Part shown: piece by piece, positions 3,796-32,568 of the stretch
Layout of the letters: each line of letters opens with the position of its first letter
Position numbering within the stretch: position 1 is the first letter of the stretch
NCBI GenBank assembly: GCA_030840515.1
Contig: JAVEEJ010000323.1
Coordinates: 1-33,290, forward strand
Reading direction: 5' to 3'
Source of the DNA: Frankiaceae bacterium
Lineage (GTDB): Bacteria > Actinomycetota > Actinomycetes > JAVEEJ01
DNA length: 33,290 nucleotides
Made by a program: the position numbers and the translations under genes
The notes under the pieces: generated by a model
The model's database searches: none
What the model saw: the letters and a program-made list of their open reading frames with translations, nothing else
What the model was told of the DNA's origin: nothing

Positions 3796-6188
3796 TCCGC
3801 GCGGTTGCTCCCGTGACGCATCCAGGCGGCGGCGAGCAGCAGGAGCAGCAACCCTGCCAGCGGCAGCGCGGCGGGAGAGCCGGTCGTAGGCAGCCCCGGG
3901 CTGTCCACCGGCCTGGGTGCGGTTGGCACCTCGACGAGCTGGACCACATGTGTGCCCTGCGGGAGCGCGACGACGAAGCCGCGGGCGCCCGCCGAGATGA
4001 CGCCGGTGTCACGGCCGTCGACGAGCCGGTGGGCGCGCCCTGTGGTTCCGGGCAGGGTGAGCGCGAGCACGGTGCTCGTGGTGGAGCGGATGGTGAGCCG
4101 ACGACGCGGGTCGACGTAGCTGCCGGCGTCCCAGTCGCCGCGCCCGAGACGTGCCGAGGCTGAGCTGACACCGGTGGTCCGCACCGTGATCGTGCCGGCC
4201 AGGTAGTCGGCGTACTCGCTCGCCGGTGTCGTCACGAACAGCTCCCCGCGTGACCGCATGGTGGGGCCCTGCTCGTCGACCATCGTGTCGCTGTGCGTCG
4301 CCTTGGCGGCGTCGGTCGTCGGGTGATAGACCGCCATCCGCTCGACGGTGATGGTGGGCCGGGTCACGCCCGGGGCCGGCTCGACGTCACGCAACCACCA
4401 CGCCCCGTCGTAGCGCTCCCCCAGCTTCGGGTTGTCCTGGCCGACCGGTCGGGTCCAGCTCACGACCGCCGGATCGGCCGGACGCTTGTGCGCGGCGAAG
4501 AAAGCGAGCAGCCGCGGGATGGTGTCGTAGATCGAGCTGTACTCGTGGATCTTCAGCTGGTAGTCGAGCAGCGTCGCGTCATAGCCGTCCGCAGCGAGCA
4601 GCGAGTAGAGCGCCTTCGCGTTCTTCGCCTGGAAGTCGAGGTCCTCCTCCGCCGTCATCTCCAACCACGGCGTGTTACGCAGGTTCGCGTGCAGGTCCGA
4701 CGAGTCGGTGCCTTCGGCGGGCGCCACGGCGGCGAATAGGTCCGGGTGGTGCATCGCGACGTTGTTGGTGCCGTACCCGCCCATCGAGTGGCCCATCAGG
4801 TACACCCGGTCGGGGTCGACGTTGTAGCGCCGCTTCACGTCGGCGAGCACCTCGAGCACGTCGGCGTCGCCGGGTGTGCCACCCCGGTAGAACCAGTCCC
4901 CGCGACCGAGTGCGCTCGCGAACAGCCAACCCTTCGCATCGACCGCCGGCACCAGGCCCGTCGGATTGCGGAAGGGCTCCTCCGGAAGGCCGGTGAACCC
5001 GTGCAGGTAGAGCACGAGCGGTGTCTTCCTGGTCCCGTCATAGGACGCCGGCACGTGCATCGCGTAGTCCTGCAACGAGCCGTCGTAGTAGTAGTTGACG
5101 TTGAAGCCGGGGTTGGGGATCGGTGGCTGGAAGTCCGGCGGAGGACCGGTCCCGAGCGCCCCGGAGGTGTCCTGCGTAATTCCGTCCTTCTTCCCCCACT
5201 GCGAGTGCAGCAGCCGCGAGAACGTCCCTTGCTGCAGCGAGGCCGGGGACGAGTACGCCGACGCGAGCAGTGCCGGGTCGACGCTCTCGCTCGCAGCAAC
5301 CGTGCCTGCGGTGAGCTGGCGTGACTGGCTGAGCTCGTCGAAGCTCCACGGGTCGTCGGTCGCGAAGAGCAGATCCCACACGTTGGTCGGCGCAATGGGG
5401 CCCCCACTACCCGGTTGCTGGTCGGAGGCCTCACCGAGGGGGACCGTCCAGAAGGTATTGGGCGAGCTGGGGTCCGACAGGCCAGCGCCGCCCTGCAGCA
5501 CCCACGGTCTAGGCGGGAGGGCCGAGAGCGGCACCCTCGCCTCCGTGACGTGGTTGTCGGCGTGGGCGGCCATGTTGGTGACGGTTGAACCGCCGGAGTC
5601 CGGGACGGTCAGGTCCGCTCCTGTCCCCCACACGGTCAGCGCCGCGACGTAGCGGCCGGTGAGGTTGGCGCCGTGCGGCCATGGCTGCTCGTCGCTCTGC
5701 GGGTCGCCGAAGGTGAGCACGGCGACCTGCGCGTCGGACCGCGGCATCGCATTCCACAGGAAGCGCACGTAGAGGTCAGGGCCGACGACCTTGAGCCGGA
5801 CCTCGGCAAGGTCGGCCGTGCCGGCAGGCCAGCTCGCGTCGTCCATGGGGAGCTGATAGTCGCCGTTGTGCGCAGCCCGGTGCGATCCGAAGAAGTCGTA
5901 GGTCAGCGCGTTGTAGAGGTCGTCGGTGATGTGCGTCGGGTCGTTCGGCGCGACATGAAAGGCGGAGTAGTAGTCGGTGCGCTCCAGGGCGTCGGCGTTG
6001 GCGCCACGTGCCTGTCGCAGCCCGTTCGTGTAGACCCACTCGCCGTTGCTGTAGTGCCCGGTCCTGAAGGTGTCGGTCGGGACACCGCTCCACGTCGGCC
6101 AGCTGACCGGAGCGGTGCCGTGCGCACCGACAGCTGCGACGGGTCCGGTCAGCAGCAGCGTGGCACCGATCAGCAGCCGTCTGATCAC
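3792..6188 (-). CDS. Secreted, probably sortase-anchored alpha/beta hydrolase (esterase/PHB-depolymerase/S9-like) with an N-terminal DOMON-like domain
   Basis: Signal peptide MIRRLLIGATLLLTGPVAAVGA. PLVLYLHG, VDPDRVYLMGHSMGGYG nucleophile elbow and HPDLFAAVAP. C-terminus LPTTG + hydrophobic stretch + RH..R. Confidence 0.8.
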   Translation of the reverse strand: MIRRLLIGATLLLTGPVAAVGAHGTAPVSWPTWSGVPTDTFRTGHYSNGEWVYTNGLRQARGANADALERTDYYSAFHVAPNDPTHITDDLYNALTYDFFGSHRAAHNGDYQLPMDDASWPAGTADLAEVRLKVVGPDLYVRFLWNAMPRSDAQVAVLTFGDPQSDEQPWPHGANLTGRYVAALTVWGTGADLTVPDSGGSTVTNMAAHADNHVTEARVPLSALPPRPWVLQGGAGLSDPSSPNTFWTVPLGEASDQQPGSGGPIAPTNVWDLLFATDDPWSFDELSQSRQLTAGTVAASESVDPALLASAYSSPASLQQGTFSRLLHSQWGKKDGITQDTSGALGTGPPPDFQPPIPNPGFNVNYYYDGSLQDYAMHVPASYDGTRKTPLVLYLHGFTGLPEEPFRNPTGLVPAVDAKGWLFASALGRGDWFYRGGTPGDADVLEVLADVKRRYNVDPDRVYLMGHSMGGYGTNNVAMHHPDLFAAVAPAEGTDSSDLHANLRNTPWLEMTAEEDLDFQAKNAKALYSLLAADGYDATLLDYQLKIHEYSSIYDTIPRLLAFFAAHKRPADPAVVSWTRPVGQDNPKLGERYDGAWWLRDVEPAPGVTRPTITVERMAVYHPTTDAAKATHSDTMVDEQGPTMRSRGELFVTTPASEYADYLAGTITVRTTGVSSASARLGRGDWDAGSYVDPRRRLTIRSTTSTVLALTLPGTTGRAHRLVDGRDTGVISAGARGFVVALPQGTHVVQLVEVPTAPRPVDSPGLPTTGSPAALPLAGLLLLLLAAAWMRHGSNRAD

Positions 6189-9057: not shown

Positions 9058-12002
9058 GCGTAGAAGACCCTCTCGACCACGGCCCTCGCGCGCCGAGTCG
9101 CCCTGCGGTAGTCCTCGAGCAGGTCGGCCACGCGTCCCGCAGGGTAGCCGACAGCGCGGGCTACGGCCGCGAGCTCCCGGACATCGGTGGGCAGGCTGTC
9201 CCCCGGGCGGCCGCGGCTGAGCATGATCCCGTCGCGCACCCGGGACGCCAGCCGCCACGCCTGCTCCAGTGCCTCCGCGTCCGGCGGCGAGACCAGCCCG
9301 GCGTCACGCGCGGCGTGCAGCGCCCGCAGGGTGCCGGTGGTGCGCAGGCCCTCGACCTCATGGGCGTGGCGCAGCTGCAGCAGCTGCACCGTCCACTCGA
9401 CGTCGGCAAGCCCGCCGCGGCCGAGCTTGGTGTGCAAGGAAGGGTCGGCGCCACGCGGGAGCCGCTCCGCCTCGACCCGAGCCTTGATCCGGCGCACCTC
9501 ACGCACGTCGACCTCGGCGAGACCGCCTTCCGGGTAGCGCAGCGGGTCGATCAGCCTGACGAACGCGCGACCGAGGTCGTCGTCGCCGGCCACCGGCGCG
9601 GCACGCAGCAGTGCCTGCGCCTCCCACACCAGGGACCAGCGCGCGTAGTACTGACCGTAGGAGGCGAGGCTCCGCGTCAGCGGCCCCTGCTTGCCTTCGG
9701 GGCGCAGGTCCGCATCGACGACCAGCGCCGGGTCGGGCGCCGGAAGGGCGAGCAACCGCCGCAGCTCGTTCGCGACGTCGTGCGCTGCCTGGGCAGCAAC
9801 GTCGTCGGTCACACCCTCCAGCGGGTCGTGCACGAACAGCACGTCGGCGTCGGACCCGTAGCCCTGCTCCGCTCCCCCGAGCCGACCCATGGCGATCACG
9901 GCGAGCCGGCAGGGAAGCGGCGACCGCCGCTCGACCTCCACCTTGCGCACCGCCACGCGCAGCGCCGCCGCGATCGCAGTCGTCGTCACGTCCGTCAGGG
10001 CTGCGCGGACCTCGTCCTGCGCTCTCAAGCCGAGCAGGTCGGCGGCGGCCGTGCGCACGAGCTCGCGGCGCCGGATCCCGCGCACCGTGAGGACCGCGGC
10101 CTCCCAGTCGTCACGGCGACGCACGGCGGCCAGTGCCTCACCGAGTAGCGCTGCGCCGGACCGGGGTCGCAGATCGCTGTCCTTCGCGAGCATCGCCACC
10201 GCTTCGGGTGCGCGGGTGAGCAGGTCGGCGGCGTAGCGGCTGCCCGCCAGCACGCGCGCGAGCCGCTCCGCCGCGGCTCCCTCGTCGCGCAGCAGACGCA
10301 GGTACCACGGGGTCGCGCCGAGCTCGTCGGAGAGCCGGCGGAACGCGAGCAGGCCGGCGTCGGCGTCGACGGCATCGGCGAACCAGCCGAGCATCACCGG
10401 GAGCAGCGTGCGCTGGATCGCCGCGCGTCGTGAGACACCGGAGGTGAGCGCCTCGATGTGGCGCAGCGCACCGGCAGGGTCGACGTACCCGAGCGCTTGC
10501 AGCCGCGCGCCGGCTTGCTCCGGAGTGAGCCGCGCCTCGTCGGTCCTCAACCTCGCGACTGCAGCCAGCAGCGGTCGGTAGAACAGCTTCTCGTGCAGCC
10601 GTCGCACCTCAACCGCGTGCCGTGCTCTGGCCTTCTCCAGCTCGACAGCGGGATCGCCGCCGAGTCCCATCGCGCGACCGAGCCGGCGCAGGTCCACCGG
10701 GTCGTCGGGCATGACGTGGGTGCGACGCAGCCGGTGCAGCTGGATCCGGTGCTCGAGGGTGCGCAGGAACCGGTAGGCCGCACCGAGCCCCCGCGCGTCC
10801 TCGCGTCCGACGTACCCCCCGCTCGCCAGCGCCTCGAGCGCGACGAGAGTGGTGCCGCTGTGCAGGGACTCGTCACTGCGGCCGTGCACGAGCTGCAGCA
10901 GCTGCACGGCAAACTCGACGTCCCGCAGTCCGCCGGGGCCGAGCTTCAGCTCGCGATCCGCGGCGTCGGCGGGCAAGGTGCCTTCGACCCGACGCCGCAT
11001 CGCCTGCACGTCCTCGACGAAGTTGGGCCGTCCGCCAGCAGTCCAGACAAGCGGAGCGAGCCGCTCGACGTACGCGTTCCCTAGCTCTTGGTCGCCTGCC
11101 ACGGGACGCGCCTTGAGCAGTGCCTGGAACTCCCAGGTGTGCGCCCAGCGGCGGTAGTAGGCCTCGTGGCTGGCGAGCGTGCGCACCAGCGGACCGGCCT
11201 TGCCCTCAGGCCGAAGTGCTGCGTCCACCGGCCAGATGGTGCCCTCCGGCGTCGCTGCCGAGCAGGCCTCCATCAACGCACTCGCAAGGGCAGTCGCGGT
11301 GCGCAGCGCAGCCGCTTCGTCGCCGCCCTCCACGGGCTCAGCCACGAAGACCACGTCGACGTCGCTGACGTAGTTGAGCTCGCGGCCGCCGCACTTGCCG
11401 AGCCCGATGACCGCCAACCTGCAGTCGGCGCTCGCCGCGGGCAGCTCGGCCCGTGCGATGACGAGGGCGGCTTCCAGGGTCGCCCCGGCCAGGTCGGCGA
11501 GCTCGGCCGCGACCTCGTCGAGCTCGACCGTGCCGGACAGGTCGCGTGCGGCGAGCCCCAACAGGTGCCGGCGGTAGGCCACTCGCAGCGCGTCCCTCGC
11601 CTCGACGCCACGACGTCCCTCGACCGCGCGGGTCATCGACGTGCGCAGGCCGTAGGCAGAGGGCCGGGTCAGGGCCACCGCGTCGTCGGTCAGCGCGCCG
11701 AGCTGCTCGGGGTGGCGGACGAGGTGGTCGGCGAGGGCGGGGCTGGAGGCGAGTACGGCGACCAGCCGCGCCCTGGCCTCCGGGCCGACCGCCAGCACGT
11801 GCGGACTGACCTCGAGGAGGGCGGCGAGGCCGGCCAACGCCCGGTCGGGGTCGGCGGACTCGGCGACGACCAGCAACCACTCGTCGTCGAGCGCGATCCG
11901 ATCGATGACGGCCGCGGCGGAGCTCGCGTCGGCGAAGCCGAGCCGCACCAGTCGGGCACGGTCGGTGGCGCGACCGGGACGCGGGTGCTCGCCGACGGTC
12001 AC
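9054..12002 (-). CDS. glnE: Bifunctional glutamine synthetase adenylyltransferase/adenylyl-removing enzyme
   Basis: Two nucleotidyltransferase domains: LAVIGLGKCGGRELNYVSDVDVVFV...VDAALRPEGKAG and LAVIAMGRLGGAEQGYGSDADVLF...VDADLRPEGKQG. Also KLGPGGLRDVEF and KLGRGGLADVEW. Confidence 0.97.
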   Translation of the reverse strand: MTVGEHPRPGRATDRARLVRLGFADASSAAAVIDRIALDDEWLLVVAESADPDRALAGLAALLEVSPHVLAVGPEARARLVAVLASSPALADHLVRHPEQLGALTDDAVALTRPSAYGLRTSMTRAVEGRRGVEARDALRVAYRRHLLGLAARDLSGTVELDEVAAELADLAGATLEAALVIARAELPAASADCRLAVIGLGKCGGRELNYVSDVDVVFVAEPVEGGDEAAALRTATALASALMEACSAATPEGTIWPVDAALRPEGKAGPLVRTLASHEAYYRRWAHTWEFQALLKARPVAGDQELGNAYVERLAPLVWTAGGRPNFVEDVQAMRRRVEGTLPADAADRELKLGPGGLRDVEFAVQLLQLVHGRSDESLHSGTTLVALEALASGGYVGREDARGLGAAYRFLRTLEHRIQLHRLRRTHVMPDDPVDLRRLGRAMGLGGDPAVELEKARARHAVEVRRLHEKLFYRPLLAAVARLRTDEARLTPEQAGARLQALGYVDPAGALRHIEALTSGVSRRAAIQRTLLPVMLGWFADAVDADAGLLAFRRLSDELGATPWYLRLLRDEGAAAERLARVLAGSRYAADLLTRAPEAVAMLAKDSDLRPRSGAALLGEALAAVRRRDDWEAAVLTVRGIRRRELVRTAAADLLGLRAQDEVRAALTDVTTTAIAAALRVAVRKVEVERRSPLPCRLAVIAMGRLGGAEQGYGSDADVLFVHDPLEGVTDDVAAQAAHDVANELRRLLALPAPDPALVVDADLRPEGKQGPLTRSLASYGQYYARWSLVWEAQALLRAAPVAGDDDLGRAFVRLIDPLRYPEGGLAEVDVREVRRIKARVEAERLPRGADPSLHTKLGRGGLADVEWTVQLLQLRHAHEVEGLRTTGTLRALHAARDAGLVSPPDAEALEQAWRLASRVRDGIMLSRGRPGDSLPTDVRELAAVARAVGYPAGRVADLLEDYRRATRRARAVVERVFYA

Positions 12003-12008
12003 CTGCTC

Positions 12009-12014
12009 ACGCTA
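12009..12014 (-). promoter_or_regulatory. Housekeeping-sigma -10 (TAGCGT) 6 nt before the glnE GTG, probably a leaderless mRNA
   Basis: Minus strand reads gcTAGCGTgagcagGTG with no strong Shine-Dalgarno. Confidence 0.6.
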
Positions 12015-12042
12015 GCGGCGGGCAAGCCCTCACCCGCTCACG

Positions 12043-14793
12043 TCAGCGGCGACGGATCCACGCGGGCTCGGGCCGTGCTGCGAGCTGCGCGCGGTGCCGG
12101 CGCATCATGGCCAACCCGGCGATGGACGTCGAGGCCATTGCCGCGGCGAGCAAGGCGAGCGCGACCCGCTCGTCGACCTGGCGGGCGGACATCGCCTGCT
12201 GGGTGACCTTCTCCTCGTCGTCGTCGACCATGAAGATGCCGATCTGCGCGAGGGCGAGCTGCAGCTGCTCCTGCTCCTGCGCAGCGCCGCCCACCTGCGG
12301 GTTGATCTGCACCTGCGGCTGAGCCTGCGCCTGGGTCACGGGCTGGGCCGGCAGCGGTGCCGGCGGCGGGGGCGGCGGCTGGCCGGGCGGGTTCTGCGTC
12401 ACTGGGATCGGGTCGGTCTTGGTGATGGGCGGGACCACCGAGATGCCACAGGTGATCGTGGCCACGGTGCTCGCCACCTTGTAGCCGCGCAGGTAGGCGT
12501 CCAAGGCCACCGGGTAGCTGCCCGGGTTGACGCCCGCGCAGGAGTAGGTGACCGAGAAGGTCCCGTCGAATGGCGCCTTCACGTTGACCCGCTTGAAGCC
12601 GCTCACCGTCGCGCCACGGAAGACCGGACTCGTCTTGCTCGGCGTCAGCTGCACGTCCTGCAGGTCGGTCAGCGAAGCGAGCAGTCGCTCGATGACCCGG
12701 CTGAAGCCGTCCTGGTTCTCGCACACGACCGGCTGCCCAGCCGGGATCACCTTGCCGTAGTCGCCGTAGTCGCACTTGAGGCCGCCCGCAGGGGCGACCG
12801 CTCCGGTCAGCTTGGCCATCTGGCGGAGGTCCGTGCGCGAGACCGGGTCGTTGCCGGTCAACCCCAGCACCTGGATGCCGTGCTGCCTGAGCAACGCGGC
12901 GACTCCGGCGATGTCGGGCTTGCCGTTCTTCACCGGCGTGCCAGGCGGCATCCGGAACCGCTCGTTGGTGGCGAGCACGATCACGCGGCGCGCGTTGCCG
13001 TCCTGGCGGAAGCCCGCGGCCTGACCGGGCAGCACGGGGTTGGTGAGCTCGATGTTGTTGACGCCGTAGCCGGTGACCGATTGCTGGAGCCCGATGAGCT
13101 GACCCTCGATGTGCTTGTCGCACTCGTTGGCGTCGGGATGGGTGTCCACGTCACACGGGGCATCCGGCTGGAGGTAGTACTCCTCCTGCAAGCGGTCCAC
13201 GGCCTTGAAGAAGTTGCTGTTCACCCGCCCGACGGGCGCCCACTGCCGGTAGAGCACCGGCTGGTGGTAGGGCTTGGAGGTGCAAAAGTTCGTTTGCCCG
13301 GCTCGGCACTCGCCGGGGTTGGTCGGCGGGTCAGGCGCTTCGCCGATCCTCGTGTACGGCGCGGTGCCGATCGCGCCGACACCCTCGTTGACGTCGATGC
13401 CGTCGCGCTTGAGGTCGATGCCGATGGCCTTCGCGTTGTGCTTGAGGTCGTCGATGACGTCACCCATCGAAGCGGACACATCGATGAGGTAGTAGACGTC
13501 GATCGGCGTCGCGTTCTTGGGCAGGTGCAGCCGGTAGTTGACCGTGCGCGTGCCCCCCGGGCGCAGCGTGAGGTTGACCGTCCGCGGCGAGATCGACCCA
13601 GGCAGCGGCTTGTAAGCAACACGGGTGTTGTCGAAGCCCGGCGGCTGCTTGCCCGGGTTGTAGCTGTCGAACCAGCGGTAGAGGTAGCGGCCGGCGGCGA
13701 TGTAGTAGGCGTCGCCCCCGAAGGTCTCGGACCTGACAACCGGCGTGCTGCCGGAGTATCCGATCGGCGTCACGTCGTGCGAGACGCCGCGCAGGGTGAC
13801 CTGGTGCACGTGCGAGCTGCCGGCGAGCATGAAGTTGGCGTCGGTCGAGCGCCAGGCGCCCGCGCGAACATCGGAGACCGCTCGGATGCCGGCATAGCTG
13901 CGACCGAAGTCGGAGGAGATGCCTGCGAATCCCGAGCCGAAGATGCCGAGTCCGTTTCCGAGCGTGGGCACGATGGCGCTCGGCGTACTCGCCACGCTGG
14001 ATCGCCGGAAGGTGGCGCCGCGGTCGTAGGAGTACCAGACCTTGCCGGCGGCGACGGCGGCGACGTTGCTGGCGCCGAAGCGGTCGGCCGCGATCTGCGT
14101 GATCGCCTGCGCGCCACCGAGGTCGGCCGAGGTGGCGCCGGCCGTCCAGGTGGCGCCGTCGCCGCTGCGGTAGAACAGGGCCGGAACCTGGCCGGTGGGG
14201 TCCGTCGGTCCGCCACCCGGGAGGCCGCCGATGCCACCGGTGACGTCACTGCCGAACTGGGCCATGCCGATGACGAAGCCGACCAGTCCGGCGGCCAGCG
14301 TGCGCGGCTCACCGACGCTGGGCAGGCCGCTGTCGGTCGTGGTCCACGTGCCGCGCAGGCCGTTGCGGCTGCTGATCACGTGCGGCACCGCCTGCGCGCC
14401 GACGCCCTCGGAGACTGTGGCGATCGCGCGCCCGTTGAAGTTGAAGGCGACGTCGATGATGTTGCTGGACGCAGAGGAGTAGCCGGCGTCCTGGGCGAGC
14501 GTGTCGAGCTGAACAGCCGTGACCCAGGAGCAGCCGCGGTCGTCGCTCACGTAGATGGTCTTGGCGCTCGAGACGATCATGCGGTTCGGCTGCAGGTAGT
14601 CCAGCGCGTACCCCGTCGGGTCCGAGACCGGCAGCCTGGTCTTCTGCCAGTGCAGGCCGGCGGTGCTCGCCGCCCTGCAGCCGATCGGCTGGCTCGCGTT
14701 GGCCAGCATGACCGGCGCGGTCGCCAGCACCACGGGCAGCGCAAGAAGCGCCACCCGTCGGCGGGCGGAGGCCGTCAGACGTTGCACGATCAA
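12043..14793 (-). CDS. Membrane-anchored surface protein: signal peptide, Asp-box/BNR beta-propeller, integrin-beta-like hybrid + VWA(betaI) module, Pro/Gln linker, C-terminal TM
   Basis: Asp-boxes SDDRGCSW, SGDGATW, SYDRGATF, SSDFGRSY. MIDAS PIDVYYLIDVSAS. PPPPPAP linker, then TM VALALLAAAMASTSIAGLAMM and RRHR. Start is TTG 14793 (overlaps the ftsH stop) or GTG 14787. Confidence 0.8.
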   Translation of the reverse strand: MIVQRLTASARRRVALLALPVVLATAPVMLANASQPIGCRAASTAGLHWQKTRLPVSDPTGYALDYLQPNRMIVSSAKTIYVSDDRGCSWVTAVQLDTLAQDAGYSSASSNIIDVAFNFNGRAIATVSEGVGAQAVPHVISSRNGLRGTWTTTDSGLPSVGEPRTLAAGLVGFVIGMAQFGSDVTGGIGGLPGGGPTDPTGQVPALFYRSGDGATWTAGATSADLGGAQAITQIAADRFGASNVAAVAAGKVWYSYDRGATFRRSSVASTPSAIVPTLGNGLGIFGSGFAGISSDFGRSYAGIRAVSDVRAGAWRSTDANFMLAGSSHVHQVTLRGVSHDVTPIGYSGSTPVVRSETFGGDAYYIAAGRYLYRWFDSYNPGKQPPGFDNTRVAYKPLPGSISPRTVNLTLRPGGTRTVNYRLHLPKNATPIDVYYLIDVSASMGDVIDDLKHNAKAIGIDLKRDGIDVNEGVGAIGTAPYTRIGEAPDPPTNPGECRAGQTNFCTSKPYHQPVLYRQWAPVGRVNSNFFKAVDRLQEEYYLQPDAPCDVDTHPDANECDKHIEGQLIGLQQSVTGYGVNNIELTNPVLPGQAAGFRQDGNARRVIVLATNERFRMPPGTPVKNGKPDIAGVAALLRQHGIQVLGLTGNDPVSRTDLRQMAKLTGAVAPAGGLKCDYGDYGKVIPAGQPVVCENQDGFSRVIERLLASLTDLQDVQLTPSKTSPVFRGATVSGFKRVNVKAPFDGTFSVTYSCAGVNPGSYPVALDAYLRGYKVASTVATITCGISVVPPITKTDPIPVTQNPPGQPPPPPPAPLPAQPVTQAQAQPQVQINPQVGGAAQEQEQLQLALAQIGIFMVDDDEEKVTQQAMSARQVDERVALALLAAAMASTSIAGLAMMRRHRAQLAARPEPAWIRRR

Positions 14794-16952
14794 CTCTTGA
14801 CCGAGGCCCGCTTCTTGGCGGCGCCGTTCTTGCTCGGGCTGGTCCTCGCGGATGTGGACTTGGCCCGTCCGTTGCTCGACACCGCAGCGCGGGCGCGGGT
14901 GCCCGATCCGTTGCGGGCCGCCTCGACGCTGCGCAGGAGTGGCGCGAGCGCCTCCTCGAGGACGGTGTCCTCCAGGGTCTCCTCCTCTTCCAGGCGCGCG
15001 GTCAGGTCGTCGAGCTCGCGACGGTGGGCGCGCAGGATGCGCGTCGCCTCAACCTGCGCGTCCTCGACCAGGGTGCGGATCTCTGCCTCGACTGCCTGCC
15101 GCGTCTCCGGGGACAGCTCAGCGAGCGGGGTCTCGTCGCCGAGGAAGCCCTCGCCGCCCTTGGCCATGTAGCGCACCATCCCGAGCGCGTCGCTCATGCC
15201 GTAGCGCGCCACCATGTCGCGCGCCAGGTCGGTCGCGTGCTCCACGTCCTGCTCGGCGCCGGTCGACCCCTCGCCGAAGATCAGCTGCTCGGCGGCGACG
15301 CCTCCGAGTGTGGCGACGAGCTGACCACGCAGCTCGGTGCGCGTCAGCAGCGACGCATCACGGTCGCCGAACGTGGCGGCCGCGATGGTGCGGCCGCGAG
15401 CCAGCACCGACACCCGGTGCAGGTCCTCGGTGCGGCCGAGCGCGGCAGCCACGACCACGTGGCCGATCTCGTGGTAGGCCGCGCGACGGCGCTCCTCCTC
15501 GGTCAGCACCCGGCCACGGCGCTGCGGGCCGTCGAGGACGCGCTGCACGGCCTCGTCGAGCTCCGGGACGTGAACGACGGACTTGCCGCGCCTGATGGTG
15601 AGCAGCGTGGCCTCGTTGACGACGTTCGCCAGGTCGGCGCCGGTGAACCCTGGGGTCTTGCGGGCGATCTTGGCGAAGTCGACCTCGGGAGCGATCGGCT
15701 TGCCGACCGCGTGGATCTTGATGATGCGCTCGCGACCGACGGCGTCCGGCCGGTCGATCGTGATGTGCCGGTCGAAGCGGCCGGGACGCATCAGGGCGGG
15801 GTCGAGGATGTCGGGGCGGTTGGTTGCACCCATGACGACGATCCCGCTCGAGGCGTCGAAGCCGTCGATCTCGACGAGGAGCTGGTTGAGCGTCTGCTCG
15901 CGCTCGTCCGAGCCACCACCGCCACCGCCCGCGCCGCGCTTGCGGCCGGCGGCGTCGAGCTCGTCGATGAACACGATCGCCGGCGCGACGGCGCGCACAC
16001 GGCGGAACAGGTCACGGACGCGGGCCGCGCCGACGCCGACGAGCGACTCGACGAACTCGGCACCGGCAACGGAGAAGAACGGCACTCCGGCCTCGCCTGC
16101 GACGGCCTTGGCGAGCAGCGTCTTGCCGGTCCCGGGAGGACCGAACAGCAGCACGCCCTTCGGCGGCGCGGCACCGAGTCGCGTGTACTTCTCCGGATCG
16201 CGCAGGTAGTCCCGAACTTCCTTGAGCTCCTCCACCGCCTCGTCGGCGCCGCCGACGTCGTTGAAGGTCACACCGGTGCCGCCCGTCTCGCTGTCGGCGA
16301 TGGCACCGAAGGAGACCACCTCACCGATCGCGCCGCCGCCGCTGCCCTTGGCCGTGAACAGCAGGCCGAACAACGTGGCGAGGATGAGGATGGGAAGCAG
16401 GAACTCAGAGACGATCCTGACGTTCTTCTTCGCCACCTGCTGATCGACGGTGACGCTGGCGCCGCTGTTCTGCAGCGCGTTGATCAGGTCCTTGGTGATG
16501 GTGCCGTTGTCCGGCAGGGCGACCCAGAACTTGCCGCTGCCTGACGGGACGTCGGTGAGCACGCTGGGCGCGGGCGTCGGGACCGCACTCGGCTTGGGCA
16601 CGGGCTTGCCCGAGGCGGCAGGGGCCGGCACGACGGGGGCGGGTGCGGCCGCCTCGGTGTAGGTCGCCTGGACCCGGGAGTCCTCGGCGAGCACGGTGGC
16701 GGTGGTGATCCGGCCGTCGGCAGCGAGGGCCGCGACCTGGTCGAGGGAGAGCTTGGTTCCCTCGGTGTGTGGGGCGAGGTAGCGCAGCGAGAGTCCGAAG
16801 GTCAGGAAGAGCAGCGCCAGGATGCCGGCGAGGATGGCGGGCAGGATCCGGCGCTTGGCCTTGGTGGCCACCCGGTGTCGGCGGCGCTTCTCGAGGAACG
16901 CGAGCACGCGCTTGATGGGGCTCGCCGAGCTCTCGGGGGTCTCGCTGGGCAC
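14790..16952 (-). CDS. ftsH: FtsH-family membrane AAA+ zinc metalloprotease (divergent paralog)
   Basis: Two N-terminal TMs, [29 protein letters not shown], Walker [39 protein letters not shown] zinc motif, TGAEQD third ligand. RBS GAGGAGG before the GTG. Confidence 0.93.
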
Positions 16953-17063
16953 GGGGGGTCCTCCTCGCCGGGGTCACCGGCTCACGGGTAGTGCGGGGGG
17001 TCACACAGGATTACTGCCGCGACGCCGGAGGCGTAACGCGACGGGGGGCCTACCTCTCATTAT

Positions 17064-17089
17064 TACGACGCGGCGCACGAGAGTCCTGC
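17064..17089 (-). promoter_or_regulatory. Putative sigmaH(Spo0H)-like promoter of the ftsH/integrin-like operon
   Basis: Minus strand reads GCAGGA-ctctcgtgcgccgc(14)-GTCGTA. The same motif occurs upstream of three other genes in the window. Confidence 0.55.
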
Positions 17090-17281
17090 CGGTGTCACAT
17101 ACCGGCCGCCCGGCGCCCCTCAACTGTAGGCGGGTCTCGCGCCTGCGTCAGGTCCGCGCCGATAACGATCCCGCCGCTGGCGCTTCAGCACCGATCCCGC
17201 CGTACTCGCCTCATTGATGATCTTGGACAAGCGCACCCTCGACCTGCCGTCCGCCCGGTGCCTTCTCCATGATCACCGCGG

Positions 17282-18622
17282 TCAGAGCAGCGGCAGATGC
17301 CGGTCCACCTCGAAGGGGGTCACCTGCTTGCGGTACTCCTCCCACTCCGCGCGCTTGTTGCGCAAGAAGAAGTCGAACACGTGCTCCCCCAGCGTCTCCG
17401 CGACCAGCTCGGAGCGCTCCATCGCCGTGATCGCGTCGGCGAGCGAACCGGGCAGCGGCTCGATCCCCAAGGCTCGCCGCTCGGCGTCCGTCAACGCCCA
17501 CACGTCGTCCTCGGCGCCCTCGGGCAGCTCGTAGCCCTCCTCGATGCCCTTGAGACCGGCGGCGAGGAGTACGGCGAACGCGAGGTAGGGGTTGCATGCG
17601 CTGTCCGGGGAGCGGACCTCGATCCGGGTCGACTGGCCCTTGGCCGGCTTGTACATCGGCACCCGGACCATGGCCGAGCGGTTGTTGTGACCCCAGCAGA
17701 CGTAGGACGGTGCCTCGCCCCCACCCCAGAGCCGCTTGTAGCTGTTCACCCACTGGTTGGTCACGGCCGTCATCTCCGGCGCGTGGGTGAGCAGGCCCGC
17801 GATGAACGCCCGGCCCGTCTTGGACAGCTGGTAGGCCGACCCGGCCTCGTAGAAGGCGTTGGTGTCGCCCTCGAACAGGGACAGGTGGGTGTGCATCGCC
17901 GAGCCCGGGTGCTCTGCGAAGGGCTTGGGCATGAACGTCGCGTAGACGCCCGCTCCCTGCGCGACCTCCTTCATGACCAGCCGGAAGGTCATGAGGTTGT
18001 CGGCTGTGGTGAGCGCGTCGGCGTAGCGCAGGTCGATCTCCTGCTGCCCCGGGCCGACCTCGTGGTGGCTGAACTCGACGCTGATCCCCATCGCCTCGAG
18101 CGTGGTGATGGCCTGCCGTCGGAAGTCGTGTGCCACCGCATGGGGGCTGTGGTCGAAGTAGCCACCGCGGTCGATCGGCTTCGGGACGTCGCCCGGGCCT
18201 TCCGGCGCCCGGTCGAGCAGGAAGAACTCGACCTCGGGGGGGGTGTAGAAGGTGAAGCCGAGGTCAGCCGCCTTGCCCAGGGCGCGCTTGAGCACCGCTC
18301 GCGGGTCCGCCCAGGACGGCGTCCCGTCAGGCATGAGGATGTCGCAGAACATGCGCGCCGTGCCTGGGTGCTCGCCACGCCAAGGGAGCAGCTGGAACGT
18401 GGCCGGGTCGGGACGTGCGAGCATGTCGCTCTCGCTGACCCGGGCAAACCCCTCGATAGCGGACCCGTCGAAGCCGATCCCCTCGAGAAACGCACCCTCG
18501 AGCTCGGCCGGGGCGACCGCGACGGACTTGAGGAAGCCCAGCACGTCGGGGAACCACAACCGAACAAAACGGATGTCGCGCTCCTCGATGGTGCGGAGCA
18601 CGAACTCCTGCTGCTTGTCCAC
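17282..18622 (-). CDS. glnA: Glutamine synthetase family protein, actinobacterial GlnA2 (GSI-alpha) type. Start GTG 18622
   Basis: MDKQQEFVLRTIEERDIRFVRLWF..., GIGFDGSAIEGF, SHHEVGPGQQEI, ATFMPKP...GSAMHTHLSL, NSYKRL..GGEAP, NRSAMVRVP, RIEVRSPDSACNPY. Linked to glnE as is usual for glnA2. Confidence 0.93.
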   Translation of the reverse strand: MDKQQEFVLRTIEERDIRFVRLWFPDVLGFLKSVAVAPAELEGAFLEGIGFDGSAIEGFARVSESDMLARPDPATFQLLPWRGEHPGTARMFCDILMPDGTPSWADPRAVLKRALGKAADLGFTFYTPPEVEFFLLDRAPEGPGDVPKPIDRGGYFDHSPHAVAHDFRRQAITTLEAMGISVEFSHHEVGPGQQEIDLRYADALTTADNLMTFRLVMKEVAQGAGVYATFMPKPFAEHPGSAMHTHLSLFEGDTNAFYEAGSAYQLSKTGRAFIAGLLTHAPEMTAVTNQWVNSYKRLWGGGEAPSYVCWGHNNRSAMVRVPMYKPAKGQSTRIEVRSPDSACNPYLAFAVLLAAGLKGIEEGYELPEGAEDDVWALTDAERRALGIEPLPGSLADAITAMERSELVAETLGEHVFDFFLRNKRAEWEEYRKQVTPFEVDRHLPLL

Positions 18623-18706: not shown

Positions 18707-20326
18707 ATGTCAGGGGGGCCGAGTCGCCGTGCCGTGCTCTCGGGCGCGGCCGTGGGGATCGCGGCGGCCGGTCTGCGCGGCAGCGCGTCGGCCTCGGCGG
18801 CGGGTGGCAGCGACCGAGACGGGGACGAGTACGACGGGACTGGGCTCGACCCGACCCTCGCGGCACCGCCCCTCCCCGTCCCGGCGAACTCCGCGCTGCA
18901 CCTGCTGCGCCGGGTCACCCATGGACCGGCGCCGGTCGACTGGGAGGCGCTGACTCAGGCCGGCGGTCTCACTGAGTACCTCGACGCCCAGCTCGCCGAC
19001 ATGCCCGACGTGATCACCGACGCGCAGGTGCGCACCCGCTTCCCCTACGCCGAGCTGCCGCCCGCCGCGGTGCACGCCGCACTCGGACCCAACTGGGATC
19101 CCACGGCGATGCGACAGGTCGCGCTGGCGCACACGTTCCGGCAGCTCGTCTCGTCACGGCAGCTCTATGAGCAGGTCGTCGACGTCTTCTACAACCGGCT
19201 CAACGTTCCGGCGAACGGCGAGGACGGGCCGTGGTCGCTGCCGGACTACTACGCGCAGGTGATCCGCAAGCACGCTTATGGCAAGTACGCCGACATGGTG
19301 CTGGCTTCCGCGACGCACGGCGCGATGCTCGACTACCTGTCGGCCTCGGAGTCCACCAAGCACAACCCGAACGAGAACCTGGGCCGGGAGCTGCTCGAGC
19401 TGCACACCGTGGGACTCGGCGCGCGCTACACGGAGACCGACGTCAAGAAGGCGGCGCTTGCGCTGACCGGGCTGACCACCGCCGCCGACGGGTCGATGAC
19501 GTACTACGCGGCATCGCACTACGTCGGCGGGCTGCGCGTGCTGCGCTGGGCCCACCCGAACAAGACCGCTGCCGGTGGGCAGGCCGTCGTCGCGAGCCTC
19601 GTCAACTACCTCACCCGGCACTCCGCGTGCGCGCGGCGGGTCGCGTCGGCCCTGGCCACCCGATTCGTCTGCGACAAGCCCCCGCGTGACCTGCTGGACG
19701 CGATGCAGCACGCCTACCTGGCCAACGACACGGCCATCGTGCCCACGCTTCGCGCGATGTTCGCGCACAAGGCCTTCGAGCAGTGGAAGGGCCGCAAGCT
19801 GCGTCGGCCGCATCAGCAGGCGCTGGCCGCCGCCCGCTGCCTGAGCGTGGGCGCCGACCCGGCGCAGCCCACCGGGACCGACGGCACGTCCAGGCTCTGG
19901 TTCAGCATGGGCTCGCTCGGCGACGCGCCACTGACCCATGCGGCGCCCGACGGCCACCCCGACCTCGCGATGTGGTGGCTGTCGACCTCGAGCCGGCTGG
20001 CCGCCCCGCGGTGGTCGGTCCTGGCGACCGGTGGCTGGGGCGCCGGCCTGTCCAACCCCGACGCCGCAGTGCTTCGGCCGACGGACTCTTACGCGACGCA
20101 GGGTGCCGTGTGGTCGCCGGCCACGTCCGTGACACCGCGCCAGCTGGTCCAGGCCTGCGCCCGCCGGATGCTCGGCCAGTCCCTGCCTTCGGCCCAGGTC
20201 GACATCGTGGTCAAGGGCGTGGGGCTGTCGCCCACTGCCCCACCCGCGCTGTTGATCAGCTACGACGCCGCGCTGGAGGCGATCTACGCCCTGCTCGCCT
20301 CGCACCCGCAGCACACGGTGCGCTGA
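18707..20326 (+). CDS. DUF1800-family protein with Tat signal. Start ATG 18707
   Basis: MSGGPSRRAVLSGAAVGIAAAG Tat signal. HLLRRVTHG, RQLYEQVVDVFYNRLNV, AMLDYL...NPNENLGRELLELHTVG and YTETDVKKAALALTG hallmarks. Confidence 0.88.
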   Translation: MSGGPSRRAVLSGAAVGIAAAGLRGSASASAAGGSDRDGDEYDGTGLDPTLAAPPLPVPANSALHLLRRVTHGPAPVDWEALTQAGGLTEYLDAQLADMPDVITDAQVRTRFPYAELPPAAVHAALGPNWDPTAMRQVALAHTFRQLVSSRQLYEQVVDVFYNRLNVPANGEDGPWSLPDYYAQVIRKHAYGKYADMVLASATHGAMLDYLSASESTKHNPNENLGRELLELHTVGLGARYTETDVKKAALALTGLTTAADGSMTYYAASHYVGGLRVLRWAHPNKTAAGGQAVVASLVNYLTRHSACARRVASALATRFVCDKPPRDLLDAMQHAYLANDTAIVPTLRAMFAHKAFEQWKGRKLRRPHQQALAAARCLSVGADPAQPTGTDGTSRLWFSMGSLGDAPLTHAAPDGHPDLAMWWLSTSSRLAAPRWSVLATGGWGAGLSNPDAAVLRPTDSYATQGAVWSPATSVTPRQLVQACARRMLGQSLPSAQVDIVVKGVGLSPTAPPALLISYDAALEAIYALLASHPQHTVR

Positions 20327-20372
20327 CATGACGGACATGGTTGACATGACGGACATAGCTGAGATCACCGAC
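20325..20372 (+). repeat. Degenerate 18-bp tandem repeat at the DUF1800/DUF1501 junction
   Basis: gacatgacggacatggtt / gacatgacggacatagct / gagatcaccgac, encoding MTDMVD-MTDIAE-ITD. Confidence 0.7.
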
Positions 20373-21725
20373 GCGGGGCTGAACGACGACCTGGTTGACC
20401 TGACCCCGGAGCCCGCCGAAGGCACGTTCCTGCCCCGGGACGACGACACACCGGCACCCGTGGTGACCGCTGGCTCCGATGTGCCGGCACTGTCAGCCAT
20501 CGCGGCGGGCAACGGCCTTGACCGGCGCAACGTGCTCGGGGGCCTCGCGGCGGCGGCCGCGGCCGGCCTGGTGTCGTCGGCACTGCCCGGCCGGCTCGCG
20601 TTCGCCGGGACCCCGGGTGACTCGATCGTCGTGTTGTTCCTCCGCGGCGCGTACGACGGGATGTCGTTGCTCGCGCCCATCGGCGACCCCCACTACAAGA
20701 AGGCTCGTCCGCGACTGGCGCTGCCAGCCTCGATCGGTCTGCCGGCAGACCGGATGTTCGCCTGGAACCCGCAGGCGGTTCAGCTGCACAACCTCTTTCA
20801 GCGGGGACAGCTCGCGCCGATTGTCGGTGTCGCCTCCCCGGCCGCCACCCGCTCGCACTTCGAGGCGATGGAGCGGATGGAGTCGTGCTCCTATGCCGCC
20901 AGCCCGCAGCGCAGCGGGTGGCTCGACCGCTACGCCGAAGGGATCGGCGCCCGGCAGGTGTTCTCCTCGGTCGCGCTCGGCGGTCTCGTCCCCCGCTCGA
21001 TGACGGGAGCAGCGCCGGAGCTGACGATGCGCAGCCTTGACGCGTTCGACGTCTCGGTCGTGGGGCAGCGCAAGCGGTTCCTCAACGCGGTGCGCGGACT
21101 GCAGCACGCCAGTCGCGGCCCTGCCGCCAACGCGATGCTCGCGGGCCTCGCCGCGGTCGACCGCGTCGACCCGCTCAAGGGACGCCGCTCGGTCGGCTAC
21201 CCCGACACCTCTCTGGGCCGTGCGCTGCACGATGTCGCGACCCTGGTGCGCGCCAACCTCGGACTGCGAGTCGCGACGGTCGACGCCGGCGGCTGGGACA
21301 TGCACGTGGGGCTCGGTAACAGCGCCGGGAACAACGGGGGCAGCTTCGGGCGTCAGGCCGCCGACCTGTCGCTGTCGATCGGCGCCTTCGTCAAGGACCT
21401 GGGCGCGGCATGGCAGCGCACCACGCTGGTGGTGATGAGCGAGTTCGGACGACGGGTGGCGGAGAACGGCAGCGGCGGCCTGGACCACGGGCACGGGAAC
21501 ATGTGGCTGGTCGCCGGCGGCCGGATCCGCGGCGGCAAGGTCTACGGGCGTTGGCCCGGCCTGGCGCCGAGCCGGTTGGATGACGGTGACCTCGCGGGCC
21601 GCGTCGACCACCGGTCGGTGCTGGCCGAGGTGATCTCTCGGCGCGGCGGTGCGTCAGCCCGCACAGTTGGGGCCGCGCTTCCTGGGGCTCCGTCCACGCG
21701 GTTGGGCTTCACCGACCCTCGGTAG
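20328..21725 (+). CDS. DUF1501-family protein with Tat signal
   Basis: LDRRNVLGG Tat motif, VVLFLRGAYDGMSLLAP, TRSHFEAM, GGWDMH, SEFGRRVAENGSGGLDHGHG. Follows DUF1800 as usual. Exact start is uncertain. Confidence 0.88.
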   Translation: MTDMVDMTDIAEITDAGLNDDLVDLTPEPAEGTFLPRDDDTPAPVVTAGSDVPALSAIAAGNGLDRRNVLGGLAAAAAAGLVSSALPGRLAFAGTPGDSIVVLFLRGAYDGMSLLAPIGDPHYKKARPRLALPASIGLPADRMFAWNPQAVQLHNLFQRGQLAPIVGVASPAATRSHFEAMERMESCSYAASPQRSGWLDRYAEGIGARQVFSSVALGGLVPRSMTGAAPELTMRSLDAFDVSVVGQRKRFLNAVRGLQHASRGPAANAMLAGLAAVDRVDPLKGRRSVGYPDTSLGRALHDVATLVRANLGLRVATVDAGGWDMHVGLGNSAGNNGGSFGRQAADLSLSIGAFVKDLGAAWQRTTLVVMSEFGRRVAENGSGGLDHGHGNMWLVAGGRIRGGKVYGRWPGLAPSRLDDGDLAGRVDHRSVLAEVISRRGGASARTVGAALPGAPSTRLGFTDPR

Positions 21726-21736
21726 ATCTGCGTGCG

Positions 21737-22600
21737 TCAGATCGTGAAGGTCGTCTCGGGCTGAGTCTGCTTCTCCGAGGCCTGGCTGATGACGCGAAGC
21801 CTGTAGTCACCCGCGGGCAGCGGTCGGCCTCGCGCGTCCACGTCGGTCCAGGATGCGGTCCACTGCCAGCAGTGGTCGGTCTCGGCAACAAGTTCGTGCG
21901 GCTGATGGTCCGCCGGGTGGTCCGCAGACCAGCGCCAGACGACTTCCGTGCCTCTCATGACCAGCAGTTCGACCTCGCGGCTAGTGCTGAAGATGAGCTT
22001 GCTGCCCGAGGTGCCGTCGCGGCAGAGTTCGTCGGTGAGTTCATGACCATGCGCGGTCTTCTTGACGATCGCGCTGTGACACCAGTTGACCGTGGAGTGG
22101 GTGTTGTCCCCCACGTCCGATGACGCGCCCTGGCAGAACGACGTACCGCTCCCCAAGGGTGCTGGCCGGGCAAAGTAGTTCCGAACCAAGTCCGGTGTCC
22201 GGTACCCGTCGACCGCGGGTCCCGGTCCCGTCGTGGCTGCCGGCTCCGCTGTCGCCTCGGGTCCAGCCGCGGCATTGGGAGACGAGGTCGCGCCCGGCTG
22301 CTGTCCGGACGCGCTGTCATTAGTGGCTCCAGGAACGGGAGCACGCGACGGCACATCTGACGCGGACGCTGAAGGCGCCGGTGTCGCACCGTCCGGGTGG
22401 CCCGTGACCCGCAGACTGTCCTGGCCGCCCAGGGAAGAGGAGCCGATGATGGCGAGTACGACGGCGACCGCACCGGCGCCCGTCGTACTCGCAGCCGTCG
22501 CCTTCAACCGCCGACGACGCCGGCCCGCCCGCCGTGCCTCGGCGAACCCACCGTCCGGTGGGCTGAGCTCGGTGAAGGGACGGCGCGGGAGGTCGCTCAT
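21737..22600 (-). CDS. Putative membrane anti-sigma factor with a C-terminal BsuPI-like Ig domain. Start ATG 22600
   Basis: Short cytoplasmic part ending ARRAGRRRRR, one TM, P/S/A/T linker, then FSTSREVELLV..VVWRWS..WTASW...GRPLPAGDYRL. ATGA overlap with the sigma stop. Confidence 0.7.
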   Translation of the reverse strand: MSDLPRRPFTELSPPDGGFAEARRAGRRRRRLKATAASTTGAGAVAVVLAIIGSSSLGGQDSLRVTGHPDGATPAPSASASDVPSRAPVPGATNDSASGQQPGATSSPNAAAGPEATAEPAATTGPGPAVDGYRTPDLVRNYFARPAPLGSGTSFCQGASSDVGDNTHSTVNWCHSAIVKKTAHGHELTDELCRDGTSGSKLIFSTSREVELLVMRGTEVVWRWSADHPADHQPHELVAETDHCWQWTASWTDVDARGRPLPAGDYRLRVISQASEKQTQPETTFTI

Positions 22601-23127
22601 CGCGCGTCCCCCATCTCTCCGGCCAGCACGAGGCGGGCCTCGTGAAGGCGACGCTTGACCGTGCCGACCGGGCGGTGGGTCAGGCGAGCGACCTCTTCGA
22701 CCGGCAGGTCGGCGTAGTAGTGCAGCAGCACCGCCTCTCGGAGCCGCTCCGGGAGTCGCTGCACCAAGTCGCGCAGCCATGGGTCGTGGGCCGGCGCGGT
22801 CGCGACGATGGCTCGCGCCGACTCGCGCGCGAGCACCCGGTCCTTGGTGGTCTGCCGCCAGTGGTCGCGGGCGATGTTGGTGGCGACGAAGAACAGCCAG
22901 GCCCGCGGGTCACAGACACTGCGCCAGCGTGCGAGCAGCCGGGTGAACGCCTCCTGGGCGATGTCCACGGCTGCTCCCTGGTCTCCGACGATGGCGAGCG
23001 CGTAGCCGGACAAGGGTCCGAAGTGCTCGGCGTACAACGCCTCGAACTGCTCCGCCTGGGACGGGGCGTCGACGGACTGAGCGGGAGGCGGCACGGGGTG
23101 TCTCAGTGCCCCCACCTCCGTCGTCAC
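22597..23127 (-). CDS. ECF (sigma70-family) RNA polymerase sigma factor
   Basis: Region 2 FEALYAEH...AVDIAQEAFTRL...AWLFFVATNIARDHWR. Region 4 LPERLREAVLLHYYADLPVEEVA...GTVKRRLHEAR. RBS AGGAGG. Confidence 0.93.
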   Translation of the reverse strand: MTTEVGALRHPVPPPAQSVDAPSQAEQFEALYAEHFGPLSGYALAIVGDQGAAVDIAQEAFTRLLARWRSVCDPRAWLFFVATNIARDHWRQTTKDRVLARESARAIVATAPAHDPWLRDLVQRLPERLREAVLLHYYADLPVEEVARLTHRPVGTVKRRLHEARLVLAGEMGDAR

Positions 23128-25231: not shown

Positions 25232-25240
25232 GGTCATGCG

Positions 25241-26684: not shown

Positions 26685-26693
26685 GGGGATCGC

Positions 26694-26719
26694 TTCGACA
26701 GCCGAGGGCGGAGTCCTGC
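26694..26719 (-). promoter_or_regulatory. Putative sigmaH-like promoter of paralog 2
   Basis: GCAGGA-ctccgccctcggct(14)-GTCGAA, then 9 nt, then ATG. Confidence 0.6.
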
Positions 26720-26747
26720 CGGCCGGCGCGCTCCGTAGGCTGGTGTT

Positions 26748-32433: not shown

Positions 32434-32568
32434 ACATGCATCTTGCCCGGCGCCCACTTCGCGACACGCATCGACGCAGCAGGCGTGATGCTGGTAACAG
32501 TGGGGCATTGGTGTCATCGTGATCACGCAAGCCGGTCGACCGACCGGTCGAATGGCCAGGAGGTAGCA

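Follow-up and report, generated by a model that had tools for sequence, protein, structure and literature searches.

The window analysed here, a 33,290-nt stretch of a Frankiaceae genome (GCA_030840515.1, contig JAVEEJ010000323.1), carries on its reverse strand an accessory ftsH gene followed by a gene for a large surface protein, termed here the partner; the pair sits between glnA and glnE, an order shared by genome G019 and two other loci. An original prediction made from the DNA letters had described a dedicated FtsH paralog with an altered pore loop, translationally coupled to an integrin-like gene. The open reading frame (ORF) at 16952-14790 (-) encodes an intact FtsH of 720 residues that scores 648.4 bits against the TIGR01241 equivalog model (cut-off 600), with AAA, AAA_lid_3, and Peptidase_M41 domains detected. 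Walker A and B, the second region of homology (SRH), HEIGH, and the Asp ligand had been called intact, and all were located (Table 1); ATP-dependent proteolysis by an FtsH hexamer is the predicted activity. Two hydrophobic segments, consistent with an N-terminal anchor and ectodomain layout, align over 46 members of the subfamily described below, for several of which PF06480 is listed. The proposed TTGA overlap of stop and start codons is real (junction GAGTTGATCGTG), but the partner start is ambiguous: the database call (P0003, 914 residues) begins at a GTG two codons further on, with AAGAG 6 nt upstream, and the gap to ftsH is then 2 nt. The two genes are coupled with either partner start. 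A promoter and terminator scan of positions 11800-17500 found nothing.

The pore-1 loop reads FVESLVGVG, as had been noted, and its Leu304 corresponds by alignment to the LFVG Phe of 7tdo_A, the solved FtsH chain with the top score. MF stands here in each of the 30 canonical actinobacterial sequences collected, a reference set that takes in sequences from the unpublished genomes G034, G029, and G006, and 29 of them have GGGHDERE in pore-2, where the window FtsH lacks the His; the Gly/Ser-only pore-2 region had gone unremarked in the original prediction. The two other substitutions it listed, RGRTIAA and LGGVAAE, are present. The Pro/Ala insert it placed in the outer domain is there as well, but is not a defining feature: across the subfamily its length varies from absent to several tens of residues, which rules it out as a functional hallmark.

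Six M41 matches were found in the source genome (G000, 75.9% complete). Its canonical ftsH, which had been expected elsewhere in the genome, is split between contig C168 (after hpt/tilS, with FVEMFVGVG) and contig C294 (the C-terminal half, before folE/folP), and the window gene is therefore an accessory paralog, as the idea of a dedicated copy implied. Neither mark of a housekeeping FtsH was found in it: pore-1 is non-aromatic, and the gene lies outside both the tilS/hpt/folE locus and the canonical tree group. Three paralogs of this genome, C237 (the window), C251, and C15, have SL or AL pore loops. A further divergent type of FtsH, with AAA+ inserts and a pore reading FQSMFYG or FQSSFYG, occurs at C244:4409-6544 of the same genome and at L028:7964-9988 of G019; M41 matches that score like it (E ~1e-26 to 1e-32) occur in about half of 40 same-class genomes.

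The exact pore motif pattern was found in at least 120 stretches, of which the 80 with titles belong to Frankiaceae/Mycobacteriales, Solirubrobacterales, Acidimicrobiia, Gaiellaceae, other Actinomycetota, three Ca. Dormiibacterota, and one Acetobacteraceae contig edge; these counts are lower bounds, because the exact pattern misses FVESLVGIG variants and the number of stretches is itself a minimum. In a FastTree phylogeny of 72 SLVG-type and 10 canonical FtsH proteins, built with no outside outgroup, a branch of 1.04 with SH-like support of 100 separates the canonical set. A profile of the N-terminal region, from which the pore was excluded, matched 478 proteins, and FVESLVGVG is present in 119/120 among the matches listed. 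HExxH is kept in 72/72 members of our own set and in 116/117 full-length proteins among the profile matches listed. Other changes run through the subfamily: the pore-2 His and the Arg of GGRAAE are lost, and the membrane-cytoplasm linker is different. Judged by these alignments and the tree, the SLVG-type proteins are a distinct FtsH subfamily that keeps the zinc site. Annotation pipelines file its members as ordinary FtsH, so the subfamily is hidden. The literature searched, largely outside subscription journals, held no description of this FtsH subfamily, the gene pair, or the tail.

The neighbouring gene had been called integrin-like, and the predicted fold of its product agrees: an AlphaFold2 model (30-row alignment; mean predicted local distance difference test score, pLDDT, 76) contains a 7-bladed β-propeller followed by an integrin-β head. 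Integrin β chains were the top Foldseek matches to the region of residues ~400-782 (E 1.7e-15 over ~430 columns, 12-18% identity), and the metal ion-dependent adhesion site (MIDAS) occurs as DxSxS or DxTxS variants across the partner family. Beyond residue 782 the model is of low confidence except for helices at 836-852 and 862-906. The partner has 10 Cys in all. By the model, it shares with the animal integrin β head a βI domain with MIDAS set into a hybrid domain. It differs in carrying its own N-terminal propeller in the same chain, in the absence from the model of PSI or EGF legs and of a separate α chain, and in the disordered tail that follows the head.

By sequence comparison, this C-terminal tail, and not the integrin head, is the common feature of the FtsH-linked partners; it is the second feature that the original prediction did not include. 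The module comprises ~130 residues and is found on partners with different ectodomains. A logo of 147 independent representatives reads (P-Q/N)n, [AG]G[AFM]AxQE[QE]EQxQLA[LF]A, an acidic linker, E[LY]AMS, an Arg-rich spacer, a transmembrane (TM) segment rich in Ala and Gly (47% A+G), and an Arg end of ~15 residues. The TM segment is weaker than that of LPXTG anchors, with a KD17 of 1.85 (n=147) versus 2.29 (n=24, same data; p 6e-7). From the last hybrid-domain Cys to QLAxA, the spacer has a minimum of 56 and a median of 65 residues in 75 proteins, with a coefficient of variation (CV) of 0.12, while for four other loops the CV is 0.17-0.51. The spacer is 60-88 residues long in 7 proteins that have other bodies.

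A search with a 28-row tail alignment retrieved 405 proteins at E ≤0.001 among 1.84 billion representatives (50% clusters), and the best 150 of the 405 matches all lie near the C-terminus. The top-ranked full-length tail proteins are essentially one body family (94/95 clustered, query included); the bodies that bear the tail comprise propeller plus integrin-head, double-propeller plus Ig (C251 of the source genome), 1,300-1,500-residue, and Kelch/Calx-β proteins. There are four tail genes in the source genome, four in G019, five in G041, and four in G172. When the 28 tails were scanned with the sorting models of NCBIfam 20.0, none exceeded a cut-off (best sorting-domain E 0.01); GVDTG_CTERM, the best NCBIfam match, was reached by 3/28 tails at E 0.01 or weaker, and the query tail scored 14.2 bits against its cut-off of 29. 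A sortase substrate was ruled out for the tail, which has no LPXTG-like motif at the TM segment; true LPXTG anchors have stronger TMs. An ordinary sortase substrate, an esterase/polyhydroxybutyrate-depolymerase-like protein ending in LPTTG, a TM segment, and a basic end, is encoded at 3792-6188 (-) of the window, so both anchor types coexist. ELAMS and QLALA may resemble ssrA-type degrons; both motifs lie outside the membrane.

Table 1 Features of the accessory ftsH gene and its partner in the window.
Feature	Position	Strand	Remarks
Ribosome-binding site AGGAGG	16960..16965	-	7 nt 5' of the ftsH GTG start
Accessory ftsH (SLVG-type)	14790..16952	-	720 aa; TM1, ectodomain, TM2, AAA+, M41 zinc protease
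Predicted TM1	16782..16850	-	residues ~35-57; sequence inspection, aligned hydrophobic segment
Pro/Ala-rich ectodomain insert	16533..16658	-	length variable; subfamily alignment
Predicted TM2	16353..16415	-	residues ~180-200; subfamily consensus FLLPLLIL; alignment
Walker A GPPGTGKT	16119..16142	-	
Pore-1 loop FVESLVGVG	16029..16055	-	Leu304 = CTC 16041-16043, in place of canonical Phe
Walker B VFIDE	15960..15974	-	
Pore-2 region	15897..15929	-	Gly/Ser only; Ser in place of canonical His
SRH with Arg fingers	15768..15824	-	
HEIGH zinc-binding motif	15459..15473	-	residues 494-498
RGRTIAA	15378..15398	-	canonical RGRALG; Gly loss common to the query's clade
LGGVAAE	15288..15308	-	canonical Arg retained in only 4% of 72 subfamily members
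EQDVE	15240..15254	-	includes Asp569, third zinc ligand by alignment
Partner surface-protein gene	12043..14793	-	916 aa from TTG, or 914 aa from GTG 14787; signal-peptide-like N-terminal segment
Predicted 7-bladed β-propeller	13657..14661	-	residues 45-379; Z 25.8, root-mean-square deviation 2.6, 272 aligned
Predicted integrin-β head	12448..13596	-	residues ~400-782; βI/VWA in hybrid Ig domain
MIDAS DVSAS	13468-13482	-	
Conserved C-terminal module of partner	12043..12447	-	
Parts of partner tail			Pro-rich spacer and Q-repeats 783-835; GAAQEQEQLQLALA helix 836-852; acidic linker; AMS 867-869; weak TM ~877-897; Arg-rich cytoplasmic end

The paralog and the tail are linked, though not at every locus. 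In the clade of the query (11 rows, support 99), 10 genes adjoin a partner-family gene, the exception being C15 of the source genome. Tail genes adjoin two of the three paralogs in that genome, both of those in G019, and likewise in G021; G019 and G021 are the two of 40 same-class genomes that have the pore pattern, in both cases beside tail genes. Of the 79 loci with flanking sequence, counted after removal of one duplicate, 26 carry a tail gene, 12 have a homolog of one of the tail-bearing bodies, its own tail truncated or not visible, 15 have short flanks, and two are without a usable ORF. A tail gene or homolog is present at 19/22 Actinomycetes-labelled loci versus only 10/36 Solirubrobacterales/Gaiellales loci, and for much of the subfamily in Solirubrobacterales/Gaiellales the nearest ~5 kb hold no tail gene. 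Starting from the surface protein, a metagenome search confirmed just five loci among 257 candidates; FtsH lies directly upstream in three of the four informative ones and is unlinked in one, the fifth locus being cut.

The two also co-occur. Of 300 Actinomycetota genomes (only 17 candidates scored per genome; G041 and G086 unpublished), 17 have the pore pattern and 16 a tail hit, with both in 13, the pattern only in 4, the tail only in 3, and neither in 280; for 12 of the 22 pattern matches, a tail hit lies no more than 4.2 kb away on the strand of the match. The corresponding counts (both/pattern only/tail only/neither) are 9/0/2/10 for family f47 (Fisher p 2e-4) and 4/3/0/7 for family f55 (p 0.07), kin not being independent in either. 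Among the seven discordant genomes, G116 and G237 have an FVESLVGIG paralog and then an exported-protein gene, the tail hit of G290 is an LPXTG-type anchor, G063 and G150 have adjoining large genes with divergent tails that were missed by the gene caller used, and the tail hit of G190 lies elsewhere in the genome (E 5e-5). After this follow-up, 15/15 genuine tail genomes of the sample have the paralog. The tail thus implies the paralog but not the reverse, since paralog genomes with no tail hit exist. This FtsH subfamily, new to the literature searched and linked to a portable tail on surface proteins, is real and conserved, and these neighbourhoods support the original prediction of a specialised paralog whose orthologs are linked to surface-protein genes. 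The two-gene system that it proposed recurs as an adjacent pair, but with several tail-bearing proteins per genome, some of them unlinked, the relation is many-to-one. Shedding, remodelling, pulling on, or quality control of the adjacent adhesin, the actions named in the original prediction, are candidate roles for the paralog. C15 (C15:13485-15518) groups with FtsH proteins whose neighbors bear NPNPNP-type tails (L042, L051, L100), and an unlinked tail gene of the source genome (C234:2924-5617) has a tail of this type; C15 and C234 may be a separated pair acting in trans.

The motor and protease of FtsH face the cytoplasm, and membrane substrates are entered from their cytoplasmic end. We tentatively propose that the paralog may be a dedicated processing protease that draws the tail in towards the cytoplasm, cleaves off the anchor, halts at the folded ectodomain, and sets this free; the substrate relation, the direction of pulling, the stalling, and the release are what we infer. 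The paralog would grip the short Arg-rich cytoplasmic end of the tail, draw the weakly hydrophobic anchor out of the membrane, and cut it away. It would stall once the folded ectodomain reaches the outer side of the membrane, and the ectodomain would be let go. The Leu pore loop would slip on the polar (P-Q/N)n before the ectodomain unfolds, and because this combination would give a grip too weak for unfolding, cutting would stop near QLAxA. A rough stall estimate of 55-68 residues, which adds ~35 (as for MrpL32), 30-45 Å from membrane to pore, and a bilayer spanned by 10-12 residues, and which may double-count, is matched by the spacer, so by this rough arithmetic the last cut would fall near QLAxA. 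The tail would then act as a sorting-like signal, with an ATP-driven protease as its cognate enzyme. E. coli FtsH operates in either direction and stops at periplasmic PhoA (10.1101/2025.10.03.679995), the pore-1 aromatic of YME1 (Y354) grips substrate (10.1101/189316), polar side chains are poorly gripped by ClpX (PMC6677533), and m-AAA stalls on MrpL32, leaves ~35 residues, and releases the product (PMC5438985). A complex prediction with three FtsH N-terminal regions and the tail scored 0.00, with the partner poorly folded in it, and weighs neither for nor against the proposal.

Several observations weigh against a processing protease of this kind. The Y354A substitution in YME1 can abolish translocation (10.1101/189316) and p97 D1, which has no pore aromatic, does not pull; the motor may be feeble, since loss of the pore aromatic can have this effect. 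The standard deviation of the spacer (8.0) is no lower than the 5.2-9.3 found for other loops of these proteins, and with absolute spreads this similar the argument for a ruler is weak. No tail column is invariant across families in the 28-row alignment, and QLAxA lies ~31 residues before the TM segment, unlike known sorting signals. As for linkage, at 24/79 loci, of which 18 belong to Solirubrobacterales/Gaiellales, the flanking 3-5 kb on each side contain neither a tail gene nor a homolog, C15 is unlinked to a tail gene, and G227 and the Solirubrobacterales-type genomes G345 and G348 carry the paralog with no tail hit found. Moreover, 23 of the 26 loci with a tail gene were in the training alignment, so the 79-locus tally is only descriptive, and two of the 13 double-positive genomes (G049, G122) supplied training tails.

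The same linkage and co-occurrence data, together with the intact protease, would fit dedicated turnover or quality control, in which the same tail would be recognised and the whole protein degraded if its ectodomain were unfolded, unassembled, or unneeded, while folded copies stayed anchored. The degradation of membrane proteins is the ordinary job of FtsH, and a weak grip would spare folded, Cys-containing ectodomains such as that of the partner. However, a pure degron would need only a cytoplasmic end and a TM segment, yet the best-conserved motifs, QEQEQxQLAxA and ELAMS, are outside the membrane, as is a spacer of 56 residues or more, and we regard turnover as somewhat unlikely. Loci of the subfamily with other exported neighbors are numerous (PstS-like, HYR/β-helix, BNR with plain anchors), as are those with extracytoplasmic function (ECF) sigma factor pairs. 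These, and the 24 loci without a tail gene, would suit a general envelope protease of surface-gene clusters that acts on assorted exported substrates, the tail being an anchoring or oligomerisation module for another enzyme or none; linkage would stem from shared islands, and linked genes co-occur through inheritance alone. This is unlikely given that the two genes repeatedly stand side by side, in either order, across several subclades and in two phyla, with ectodomains that differ and only the tail in common, that every genuine tail genome of the sample has the paralog, and that no other enzyme is a steady neighbor, an S8-peptidase motif being present at 3/38 tail loci.

A motor that does not cut seems improbable. 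Here the hexamer would tug the tail for tension, for closed/open switching of the integrin-like head, or for adhesin retraction, and the protease would be incidental. The modelled head has the βI-in-hybrid arrangement of integrin β, which is force-switched in animals. Dislocation without cutting also has a precedent in the action of m-AAA on Ccp1 (PMC5438985). Yet HExxH is kept throughout the 72 members of our set and in all but one of the 117 full-length profile matches, many partners have no integrin head, and a Leu pore loop is ill-suited to force generation.

With canonical FtsH (TIGR01241; M41; 7tdo_A, 2ce7_A, 7vhp_A) the window FtsH shares the two-TM/ectodomain/AAA+/M41 layout, Walker A/B, SRH, HEXXH, and the Asp. 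It differs in SL for MF, the lost pore-2 His, the other linker, and the lost Arg of GGRAAE, and in being an accessory copy outside hpt/folE that is linked to tail-bearing surface proteins. Pseudomonas PaFtsH2 and plastid FtsHi are reportedly extra FtsH copies with narrowed or altered activity, and the linker differs in the window FtsH too. PaFtsH2 is not known to be paired with a surface-protein tail. Plastid FtsHi is said to be proteolytically inactive, whereas the SLVG subfamily keeps HEXXH.

We compared the tail and its FtsH with C-terminal sorting systems (LPXTG/sortase, PEP-CTERM/exosortase, GlyGly-CTERM/rhombosortase, MYXO-CTERM/myxosortase; Haft, 10.1101/2023.06.07.544157). In both, a motif, a TM segment, and an Arg cluster stand at the C-terminus of varied exported bodies, with several targets per genome (10.1101/2023.06.07.544157). 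Sorting systems have a neighboring, co-occurring protease; here the paralog accompanies every genuine tail genome of the sample but is also present where no tail is detected. The tail is ~130 residues long, with two motifs, a long spacer, and no invariant residue, and its candidate enzyme would be a processive protease driven by ATP rather than a transpeptidase or an intramembrane protease; the known sorting-signal enzymes are sortases or intramembrane proteases in that account (10.1101/2023.06.07.544157). The pair is sorting-like in layout, multiplicity, and gene linkage, and lacks the short invariant signature of such systems. Limited processing, as by m-AAA on MrpL32 and Ccp1 (PMC5438985) and by the proteasome on endoplasmic reticulum-anchored Mga2 (10.64898/2026.08.31.748402), involves, as proposed for the pair, pulling, a stall at a folded domain, release, and dislocation of a weak TM segment; the products described there stay on the protease's side, whereas the product predicted here would be on the far side and the protease dedicated to one signal. 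In the MoxR-vWA FtsH ternary systems (Kaur et al. 2020, PMC7159879), too, actinobacteria carry a vWA gene close to one for an FtsH-type AAA+ protein. These systems were ruled out for the present pair: their AAA+ domains are in tandem, the first copy being inactive, and their partner is MoxR, and here a membrane M41 protease stands beside an exported protein.

It is possible, though more doubtful than the processing role itself, that these genes represent a new bacterial sorting class in which an ATP-driven FtsH paralog processes a portable C-terminal signal, draws the anchor inward, measures ~60 residues against the membrane, and sheds propeller/single-chain integrin-like adhesins, so that soil actinobacteria could detach under energy control. 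If true, the dedication of an AAA+ protease to a single surface-protein tail would be a new control of adhesin release. The SLVG loop would offer a natural test of how far translocation reaches with a non-aromatic pore loop, and integrin-like heads would gain a bacterial setting. The pair is directly testable because two named strains, Blastococcus saxobsidens DSM 44509 (L098) and Solirubrobacter deserti (L047), carry it.

Other genes recur around SLVG ftsH. In one subclade (L025:8954-11200, L055, L058, L066, L081, L103), a gene for a two-domain AAA+ ATPase (~750 residues) lies directly 3' of it, and L066 has two divergent SLVG ftsH genes that flank a small NTPase gene. At L060:8557-10461 and L206:6387-7500, a second FtsH-like gene is found within three genes, with anchored BNR/NHL proteins between. 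PstS-like binding-protein genes are in or near many of the clusters (L065, L049, L038, L209, L062, L092), with a PBP_like_2 match in L065 and a PstS-like neighbor cluster of 14. At the Solirubrobacterales loci L030, L072, L074, L084, L089, and L061, sequence inspection indicated ECF-sigma-like genes 3' of ftsH, where an anti-sigma substrate is possible. In a subclade without tail genes (L046, L048, L053, L070, L087, L102), ftsH is divergent from genes for ~700-residue HYR/β-helix exported proteins whose conserved final strand reads GxYxKTITLTLSTTTP, and a gene for a periplasmic binding protein is nearby. S8 subtilase genes adjoin some tail genes; an S8 peptidase was rejected as the processing enzyme, its motif occurring at only three tail loci (L027, L031, L213) of the 38 and at C251:11119-12330 of the source genome.

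Elsewhere in the window, tandem genes at 23858-25237 (-) and 25293-27104 (-) encode similar exported proteins with BNR-like motifs, no C-terminal anchor, and almost no Pfam/NCBIfam match. A SigE-like ECF sigma factor gene at 21737-23127 (-) is followed by one for a membrane protein with a weak BsuPI match, likely an anti-sigma factor. A DUF1800/DUF1501 gene pair occupies ~18760-21725 (+); the true DUF1800 start is placed much later than 17297, because the ORF called from 17297 overlaps glnA on the opposite strand. At 32443-33288 (+), a DUF1508 domain is fused to a long histone-H1-like Lys/Ala repeat (HC2).

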